64,000 bases of DNA from a phage. This document shows, piece by piece, positions 34,094-34,454 of the stretch (positions within the stretch are counted from its first letter, which is position 1; every line of letters starts with the position of its first letter). Below the pieces are notes generated by a model. That model was not told the origin of the DNA, did not search any database, and saw only the letters and a list, made by a program, of their open reading frames with translations. The position numbers and the translations under genes were made by a program. The stretch lies in sequence record PV805633.1; one strand, 5' to 3'.

Positions 34094-34454
34094 ATGATTG
34101 ACCTAATCTTAACCCCGTATGCCTATGAGGTAACGGATAACCGAGGACGTAAGTCTTTGGTGTTTGCAGGTAGCGTAGCCTATAACAACGCAGTCATGTT
34201 TAAATACAAACTCAAACCACTCTATGAGGCTAACAATGGAATTTGATGATTTAGATTTTGAAGCTATTGAAAAGGCGAACCAGGAGAAACTGGAACAGGC
34301 TAATCGTGAAGCAGAAGAGTTAGAAAACGCTAAAGGCAACAACGATTGCACGAGTGGTGGTTGCACCATTTAGCAAACAGGTATATGGTAGTTTTTACCG
34401 AAAGGTACTGAACTACCCGACATGTGGTAAGGCTCGAGAAGCCAAAACAAAATA

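Follow-up and report, generated by a model that had tools for sequence, protein, structure and literature searches.

RNR is the sole de novo source of dNTPs. In Escherichia coli, residues C754 and C759 of NrdA swing into the active site and re-reduce it after each turnover, and these tail cysteines are then themselves re-reduced by thioredoxin or glutaredoxin; genuine RNR alpha tails may have either CX2C or CX4C spacing. PDB entry 1QFN contains, as one chain, a free tail peptide of 25 residues (E. coli NrdA residues 737-761, C754S), in a structure that Berardi and Bushweller reportedly solved in 1999 as a mixed disulfide with glutaredoxin-1. The eukaryotic protein Sml1 is said, after work by Zhang and others in 2007, to compete with the C-terminal CX2C domain of R1, and phage N4, as Guinta and others reportedly found in 1986, needs the RNR of its host.

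In class I RNRs generally, a double-cysteine motif at a disordered extreme C-terminus re-reduces the active site (PMC9669993), and a C-terminal cysteine pair has been described in eukaryotic RNRs (PMC4078304). The Clover defence senses changes in dNTPs that are driven by RNR. Family PF13876 has recently been identified as Acb4, whose members are tetrameric sponges for cyclic nucleotides (bioRxiv 10.1101/2024.12.30.630793); a keyword search of that preprint gave no mention of the tail. Family PF21825 is Sequestin, and sponge and anti-defence modules are often fused together.

The accessory island and its cassettes

The window, that is, the whole 64,000-nucleotide stretch of DNA that was analysed, is from a G7C-like N4-type coliphage (Gamaleyavirus, Schitoviridae), with 95.4% identity to Escherichia phage vB_EcoP_G7C over positions 32900-34800. 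The two genes of principal interest, ORF1 and ORF2 (Table 1), lie on a short plus-strand stretch with replication genes on one side and the virion RNA polymerase gene on the other. At the same site, relatives carry variable cargo (tRNAs, 'anti-CRISPR' or Tad2-like genes, and others), and the stretch from ORF1 to ORF3 is a cassette-type accessory and anti-defence island. The reference annotation of G7C, the closest relative, has terminators and zero genes at the homologous stretch; with all three ORFs left unannotated, it misses three conserved genes.

Table 1. Features of the island and its boundaries, in positions of the window
Feature	Position	Strand	Details
Terminator-like hairpin, 13-bp stem and U-run	34030-34061	+	Terminator scan; -22.9 kcal/mol, z = -3.8
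ORF1, 50 aa, PHROG 34266	34094-34246	+	ATG start; TGA stop at 34244-34246
GAGG Shine-Dalgarno sequence of ORF2	34226-34229	+	6 nt before the ORF2 ATG, within the 3' end of ORF1
ORF2, 45 aa, acidic helix-plus-tail micro-protein	34236-34373	+	ATG start; TAG stop
Cassette slot A	34239-34354		blastn junctions and aligned junction sequences against Mimir124 and SP5M
Tail of ORF2, NDCTSGGCTI	34341-34370	+	Cys38 at 34350-34352; Cys43 at 34365-34367
8-bp GC-rich hairpin 3' of ORF2	34454-34474		-12.6 kcal/mol, z = -3.2
Cassette slot B	34475/34482
ORF3, 76 aa, phrog_9565	34498-34728	+	E = 2e-32; annotated as gp100 of pSb-1
Bidirectional terminator hairpin at the boundary of the island and the virion RNA polymerase gene	34740-34763		-21.4 kcal/mol, z = -5.2
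Virion RNA polymerase ORF, 3,754 aa	34770-46034	-	Convergent with the island

The cassettes are each bracketed by stable hairpins. The first of these closes the upstream unit directly before ORF1, and G7C has a rho-independent terminator annotated at the homologous position; at the second, slot A ends and slot B borders on it; and at the equivalent of the third, terminators are annotated on both strands of G7C. A promoter scan found no sigma-70-like promoter upstream of ORF1, and the recurrence of an element, CTTTTTATTTGAG, was not above chance. A tRNA or ncRNA origin of the region was rejected, as neither ARAGORN nor Rfam gave matches there; with relaxed thresholds, only degenerate tRNA-like remnants were seen, located upstream and without bearing on the ORFs.

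ORF3, the last gene of the island, is kept in the genomes of Mimir124 and SP5M. It gave weak matches, below the cut-off, to models of sigma-70 region 4 and HTH, and is a possible regulator. Slot B is empty in the window and is occupied by a Tad2-like gene in relatives, and in one relative a Sequestin-family gene (PF21825) comes next. The island is an assembly of counter-defence sponges.

Two overlapping genes and an exchangeable slot

ORF1 matches the phrog_34266 profile over residues 2-46 (E = 9.9e-22), a PHROG without known function, and is annotated as gp98 in Shigella phage pSb-1. A large protein search yielded 17 clusters of ORF1 homologs, all from close relatives (69-100% identity), and ORF1 also matches small uncharacterised proteins of Klebsiella and Salmonella phages with 58-74% identity; it is absent from N4-type phages. 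The fold predicted by AF2 is beta-beta-alpha-beta (pLDDT 82, with the core above 90), for which no structural match was found in the PDB. ORF1 is thus a conserved small protein with a predicted beta-beta-alpha-beta fold.

ORF2, annotated as gp99 in pSb-1, encodes the protein MEFDDLDFEAIEKANQEKLEQANREAEELENAKGNNDCTSGGCTI, which has a net charge of -9. It overlaps ORF1 by 11 nt, and since its Shine-Dalgarno sequence lies inside the 3' end of ORF1, translation of the two genes is presumably coupled. In a divergent metagenomic contig, whose ORF2 is 71% identical, the ORF1-ORF2 pair is kept with a TGATG overlap. Between the window and pSb-1 (86% DNA identity), ORF2 has 18 synonymous and 3 non-synonymous differences, and its dN/dS was 0.01-0.11 across all informative pairs, at near-saturated synonymous divergence; that of ORF1 was 0.05-0.14. 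Two alternative frames taken as controls contain stops and gave dN/dS values of 1-4. Both ORFs are genuine genes under strong purifying selection.

The structure predicted for ORF2 by AlphaFold2 is a single helix (residues 8-35) followed by an unstructured tail. No family model of Pfam, PHROG or NCBIfam matches ORF2, and a Pfam search found no PF13876 domain in it. A phmmer search of PDB sequences with ORF2 returned only helical designer proteins, which were rejected as spurious, and no RNR; similarity confined to a short tail is invisible to phmmer, and E. coli nrdA was therefore compared directly.

The first-pass annotation, made from the letters of the window alone, had reported two tandem micro-ORFs, the second with a GAGG Shine-Dalgarno sequence, at coordinates that are now confirmed. 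Its description of the second as an acidic helical stretch ending in ...NDCTSGGCTI agrees with the translation and with the AF2 model, and conservation at the amino-acid level, which it had named as a check, was found for both ORFs along with the purifying selection described above. It had also called the surrounding region otherwise non-coding, which was mistaken, as the conserved ORF3 lies there too and the stretch is an accessory island.

Most Gamaleyaviruses have, after ORF1 and in place of ORF2, a gene for a protein of 126-130 aa that pharokka labels 'anti-CRISPR', so that ORF1 sits before either allele of what is here called slot A. In Mimir124 the slot A protein belongs to PF13876 (89 bits), the family of N4 gp49, and its gene uses the same Shine-Dalgarno sequence and ATG as ORF2. 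The window and the Acb4-type genomes are homologous through these shared signals as far as 34239, where homology breaks off, to resume at 34353/34354, in the tail codons (GGTGGTTGCACCATTTAG). With one junction at the common start codon and the other within the codons of the tail, ORF2 and the Acb4-plus-tail gene are alternative alleles: the alleles of slot A keep the start codon and the tail and exchange everything between. The slot cleanly illustrates how a cassette of an anti-defence island can be exchanged from the start codon to the tail.

The Gamaleyavirus PF13876 slot protein ends ...ASFAENNTCDGGGCTI (in Mimir124, ...NNTCDGGGCTI), and N4-type gp49 homologs end ...FLQDDNCEGGGCKI and ...FLEDDNCDGGGCKI, with the form DDNCEGGGCKI. 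The tail is missing from a Schitoviridae PF13876 homolog and from most of the 892 phage records with the domain, and is therefore not needed for the sponge fold.

Recombination in this slot raises the question of whether ORF2 could be a non-functional remnant of an Acb4-tail gene or of a captured 3' end of nrdA. The recombinogenic slot, with one junction at the start codon and the other within the tail, would agree with such an origin, as would the omission of the gene by the annotators of G7C; but the strength of purifying selection at near-saturated synonymous divergence, the occurrence of full-length family members of the same size in unrelated phage lineages, the intact Shine-Dalgarno sequence and start with conserved coupling to ORF1, and a body that has no similarity to Acb4 or NrdA outside the tail together make a remnant highly implausible.

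The ORF2 family and its C-terminal tail

By sequence, ORF2 is assigned to a family of small proteins (43-67 aa) present in at least four unrelated phage groups. A tblastn search with ORF2 gave near-full-length matches (42-44% identity over residues 3-45) in phiEcoM-GJ1-like myoviruses (Chaseviridae, Carltongylesvirus), of which MDIDALDNLDFGAAEEAIEELKKKQDEEAIVPGAGDNDCSSGACAI is an example. Profile searches of 5.8 billion and 1.84 billion proteins added further members of 43-67 aa, with E-values to 1e-20 for close members and to 1e-12 for Carltongylesvirus and metagenomic members, and scans by pattern brought further members from jumbo phages of Erwinia, Dickeya, Klebsiella and Serratia (56 records), as well as one 164-aa fusion protein. 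The lineages and hosts of the family include Gamaleyavirus, Carltongylesvirus, jumbo phages of Erwinia, Dickeya and Klebsiella, and metagenomic phages. Towards the N-terminus the members differ from one another and are acidic and helical, often with a (F/L)D(D/N)LD(F/L) motif, and the C-terminus is near-invariant, as (N/D)(D/E)-C-x-[SG]-G-[AG]-C-x-I-COOH; ORF2 has the size, the acidic helix and the terminal motif of the family. The member of Erwinia phage Y3 has a CX2C tail (...EADCDGCKI) instead of CX4C. The idea that the (F/L)DDLDF motif of the family mimics the C-terminus of NrdB (...DTDDLSNFQL) was set aside as speculation, the likeness being weak and the motif being absent from the Acb4-tail proteins.

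The near-invariant C-terminus resembles that of the alpha subunit of RNR. NrdA of E. coli K-12 ends ...SIQDDGCESGACKI (...NTRDGAEDAQDDLVPSIQDDGCESGACKI), its final residues being DDGCESGACKI, and some members of the ORF2 family end CESGACAI, matching seven of the last eight residues of E. coli NrdA. By hhalign, the last 19 columns of the family align end to end with the last 19 residues of NrdA (P = 6.8e-6), and the acidic lead-in of the ORF2 tail also resembles that of NrdA. When full-length NrdA was used in tblastn against SKA49 and the metagenomic contig L009, the tail of the micro-ORF was the top match. The probability of the relaxed terminal motif in a random protein is about 1.3e-8.

The family consensus tail, N-D-C-x-S-G-A-C-x-I followed by a stop, was sought in one genome per species from 185,579 bacterial and archaeal species (596 Gb), and 11 matches were obtained. 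Seven of them are at the ends of long ORFs, all of NrdA orthologs, which share 70-82% identity with E. coli NrdA and of which two extend past the edge of the locus, and the other four are chance matches in frames of 14-22 codons. A scan of viral contigs for C-[DE]-G-G-G-C-[KT]-I-stop gave 24 matches, all at true stops: these are Acb4/gp49 proteins of N4-like phages, micro-proteins, and one phage NrdA of 759 aa, which is 41% identical to E. coli NrdA, has nrdB upstream and ends ...EGCEGGGCKI. The octapeptide CEGGGCKI is identical in this phage NrdA, in N4-type gp49 and in jumbo-phage micro-proteins.

The tail of ORF2 agrees with RNR alpha tails in position, motif and predicted disorder. Judged by sequence comparison, it copies the redox-shuttle tail found at the C-terminus of class Ia RNR alpha, an identity missed by the first-pass annotation, which had taken the Cys-bearing tail as a pattern only. 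The copy does not extend to the ten-stranded alpha/beta catalytic barrel with its active-site cysteines: ORF2 is only 45 aa long, tblastn of E. coli NrdA against the window gave nothing above noise, and no Pfam match was obtained. The coliphage tails of the family (CTSGGCTI, C[ST]SGACAI, CEGGGCKI) are similar but not identical to CESGACKI of E. coli NrdA, and strict tracking of the host by the tail sequence was rejected, as these tails differ from E. coli NrdA at the x positions.

It is also conceivable, though less likely, that the resemblance reflects convergence on a small redox loop, the tail being a C-terminal dithiol or metal-binding knuckle of a generic kind. A CX4C or CX2C disulfide, or Zn or Fe bound between subunits, would then stabilise or oligomerise small anti-defence proteins, and ORF2 would be a minimal coiled-coil, a decoy protein or a novel kind of sponge. 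The presence of the tail on the tetrameric Acb4 family, and the abundance of oligomeric sponges (Tad2-like, Sequestin) in the island of relatives, would suit such a knuckle, but most PF13876 proteins lack the tail and no packing of the tail is seen in the AF2 model. Likewise, the spacing of the cysteines varies (CX2C in Y3), as do the x positions among phages of the same host, also in favour of a knuckle; variation between CX2C and CX4C is, however, known from genuine RNR alpha tails too. Positions other than the cysteines are conserved as well ([SG]-G-[AG], the terminal Ile and the acidic or Asn lead-in) and match RNR alpha; the second Cys is followed by exactly two residues, as in RNR alpha; the only long ORFs of cellular genomes that end in the motif are those of NrdA orthologs; and the same octapeptide ends a bona fide phage NrdA. 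These points speak against a generic knuckle.

Another possibility is that ORF2 is a RiPP precursor with an acidic leader and a Cys-bearing core, in keeping with its small size, its acidic helical N-terminus and its conserved Cys-containing C-terminus. The likeness to a leader plus core had been judged superficial at first pass, with no modification enzyme nearby, and this judgement stands for the contexts examined: RiPP maturation enzymes were found in none of the window island, pSb-1, SKA49, L008, L009, L015 and Y3, and in five independent contexts there is no radical-SAM, YcaO, lanthipeptide or other maturation enzyme, protease or exporter nearby. ORF2 matches no RiPP precursor model of Pfam or NCBIfam. 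The same tail ends the folded sponge domain of Acb4 proteins (126-140 aa) and an RNR alpha enzyme of 759 aa, and is therefore a misfit for a RiPP core. A role as RiPP precursor is accordingly very improbable.

Proposed roles of the tail

No homolog of NrdA or NrdB was detected by tblastn in the 64-kb window or in SKA49, and no RNR, thioredoxin or glutaredoxin is annotated in SKA49 or in the left arm of Mimir124, both of which have thymidylate synthase and dCTP deaminase or dUTPase. In two lineages the micro-gene has neighbours in nucleotide metabolism: in SKA49 it is located 1.7 kb upstream of thyX and replication genes, and in Erwinia phage Y3 it is flanked by the genes of dCMP deaminase and thymidylate synthase. 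The distant metagenomic contigs L008 and L009 showed no informative neighbours.

Because the phage encodes neither RNR nor thioredoxin nor glutaredoxin, ORF2 is proposed to be a trans-acting surrogate of the host NrdA tail that would engage the thiol relay between thioredoxin or glutaredoxin and NrdA, a reading to which we give slightly less than an even chance. The element that has stayed constant, under selection and through domain swapping, is the flexible acidic C-terminus matching the RNR alpha tail in sequence and position; in the simplest reading ORF2 would enter, with it, the host relay, which leads from thioredoxin or glutaredoxin through the NrdA tail to the NrdA active site. There it might serve as an extra diffusible dithiol shuttle that adds reducing flux to NrdA; or it might compete for redoxins or for the entrance of the active site, in which case, if bound too well, it would be a rival to the native tail or a sink for redoxins. 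The outcome would be a tuning of host dNTP synthesis or of redoxin availability during infection. The peptide of 1QFN implies that an isolated acidic peptide ending in the NrdA tail would be a specific ligand of redoxins.

Several considerations weigh against this surrogate of the NrdA tail and its putative binding to NrdA, TrxA or GrxA. The coliphage tails are similar but not identical to that of E. coli. The CX2C spacing of the Y3 subfamily argues for a generic dithiol and not for precise mimicry. A free peptide has to compete with a tethered tail of high effective concentration, and blocking the host RNR would seem counter-productive for a phage that reportedly needs it. The attachment to Acb4, a tetrameric sponge, and the island context would suit a structural role or an unrelated anti-defence role equally well.

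The tail is portable, being carried in sister phages and in N4 itself by an Acb4 nucleotide-signal sponge of the same slot, and it is probably a module of the phage counter-defence or host-takeover toolkit. Its fusion to Acb4 and its surroundings of anti-defence genes point to a part in a contest over nucleotide pools. In its broadest form, which can be put forward only tentatively, the proposal would be that the free-standing tail copy of RNR-less phages, whether on a 45-aa protein or on the Acb4 protein gp49 of N4, rewires host dNTP production through the relay of NrdA, thioredoxin and glutaredoxin; the output of dNTPs may be boosted, or it may be uncoupled from host control and from dNTP-based immunity.

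The same setting admits a role apart from dNTP synthesis, in which the tail would be a decoy for a component of host immunity and a stand-alone anti-defence module that was fused to Acb4 in N4; its target could be a defence protein that keeps watch on the NrdA tail or the thioredoxin system, alters it or makes use of it. The locus is indeed an anti-defence island, where relatives carry Acb4, Tad2-like and Sequestin alleles; fusions among anti-defence modules are frequent, the slot swaps alleles as counter-defence cassettes do, and there are defences that respond to RNR activity or dNTP levels. The genes in Carltongylesvirus and in Erwinia jumbo phages, however, lie amid genes of dNTP metabolism and replication with no recognisable anti-defence island. 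We know of no defence system that recognises the NrdA tail or requires thioredoxin or glutaredoxin, none having been found in our search of the literature. A decoy of this sort is considered rather improbable.

The supply of dNTPs is a battleground of phages and bacterial immunity, where dNTP-depleting enzymes and Clover-type sensors act, and the copying of the tail suggests a previously undescribed way in which RNR-less phages may interfere with the RNR of the host. If the proposed surrogate is real, a natural compact peptide that copies the redox tail of RNR would be a new handle on the dNTP step, and a ready-made probe, or scaffold for inhibitors, with which to address the way bacterial class Ia RNR is regenerated through its tail. 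Part of N4 gp49 would thereby gain a function, as would small genes now listed as 'hypothetical' in at least four lineages of phages, among them coliphages that are therapeutic candidates. The peptide would also define a new class of host-takeover or counter-defence effectors, which act by mimicking the C-terminal tail of an enzyme of core metabolism. There is a real chance that the ORF2 tail represents such a new effector class.

Comparison with known systems

Small phage proteins that imitate host components are a known kind, and a phage copy of the RNR alpha tail is without earlier description in the literature searched, where no paper was found with the tail strings, with such a copy or with the tail of gp49. 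Among the closest counterparts is the tail of E. coli NrdA itself (residues ~737-761, with Cys754 and Cys759), with which ORF2 shares the extreme C-terminal site, the motif C-x-[SG]-G-[AG]-C-x-I-COOH and predicted disorder. At the variable positions of the tail, ORF2 has T, S, G and T where the host has E, S, A and K. Unlike NrdA, ORF2 has no catalytic barrel, its homology is limited to about 19 residues, and it is a stand-alone gene in an RNR-less phage.

The tail peptide of 1QFN is of similar size and composition to ORF2, but it is a synthetic fragment of a host enzyme, whereas ORF2 is natural, an independently evolving phage gene, and adds an N-terminal helix and a conserved (F/L)D(D/N)LDF-like motif. 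The Acb4 proteins of PF13876 (N4 gp49, Sf6 gp66) occupy the same slot after ORF1, with the same Shine-Dalgarno sequence and start and the same tail; ORF2 differs in having no PF13876 domain, which is a three-stranded core flanked by helices that forms a tetramer, and is predicted to be a single helix. RiPP precursors are like ORF2 in size and in the combination of a helical N-terminus with a Cys-bearing C-terminal segment, and unlike it in that ORF2 has no maturation machinery and a tail that is common to large folded proteins. Among cellular proteins, the eukaryotic Sml1, Spd1, Hug1 and Dif1 resemble ORF2 in being small and largely unstructured, and in their case, as in the role proposed here for ORF2, the site of action would be the tail-dependent step of RNR regeneration; however, proteins of the Sml1 type are cellular inhibitors and not copies of the tail, and a sequence relationship to ORF2 is not expected.

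Carriers of the cysteine tail

The C-terminal cysteine tail of the ORF2 micro-protein family was found in other protein contexts (see table). The protein encoded on a jumbo-phage contig (L043) consists of an N-terminal domain of ~110 residues joined to a complete micro-protein module (…LDLSGLADIDFDAVNQRVEQMQAGGGEVVAESNECEGGGCKI), and this fusion is a third architecture bearing the tail. The tail of the Erwinia phage Y3 family member is of the form CX2C (…EADCDGCKI) rather than CX4C, and its gene lies between gp035, which encodes dCMP deaminase, and gp045, which encodes thymidylate synthase. 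In two N4-type phage loci (L029 and L030), gp49 of the Acb4 family has a C-terminal extension of ~20 residues ending DDNC[ED]GGGCKI, which most PF13876 proteins do not have and of which there is no mention in the Acb4 preprint (bioRxiv 10.1101/2024.12.30.630793).

At the L062 locus, a micro-protein gene has two neighbours that, judged by eye only, look like genes for a low-molecular-weight phosphatase/ArsC-type protein with a CX5R motif and for a PAPS-reductase-like ATP pyrophosphatase, respectively. Both of these families comprise thioredoxin-linked enzymes.

Coordinates and characteristics of the features discussed
Feature	Location	Strand	Description
Micro-protein with flanking ORFs	L062:1094-3199		57 aa, ending …NSNCDGGGCTI
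N4-type gp49 (Acb4 family)	L029:1501-1872, L030:1450-1875		Enquatrovirus and one Klebsiella N4-like phage
Fusion protein	L043:2750-3244		164 aa; 273-kb jumbo-phage contig
Erwinia phage Y3 gp038	L067:9001-9156		Micro-protein family member
T-arm-like motifs (two), GGTTCGATTCC	window 33531, 33598
Second cassette junction	window 34475/34482		Empty in window phage
ORF3	window 34498-34728	+	76 aa, conserved; phrog_9565, E = 2e-32

The stretch upstream of ORF1

Neither a conserved ORF nor a tRNA or Rfam match was found in the ~1 kb at window positions 33000-34060. Besides the two T-arm-like motifs, degenerate tRNA-like candidates were detected at ~33405-33621 (by ARAGORN, at the 80% threshold only). 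Because intact tRNA genes are present in the corresponding region of relatives, this stretch looks like a decayed tRNA cluster.

The small genes and cassettes preceding the virion RNA polymerase gene

ORF1, ORF2 and ORF3, all three of them conserved, are unannotated in the G7C reference record (HQ259105.1, L001), in which only terminators are marked at 35500-36220, and the type genome has an annotation gap there. The second cassette junction is occupied by a Tad2-like (PF11195) gene of ~500 bp in Mimir124, SP5M, L015 and the N4-type BEU42, and the related locus L015 has an extra Sequestin-family (PF21825) gene ahead of the polymerase gene. In every relative, the island ends with ORF3. The similarity of its product to HTH or sigma-70 region 4 domains is weak and sub-threshold, and ORF3 may regulate the cassette array in an Aca-like manner.
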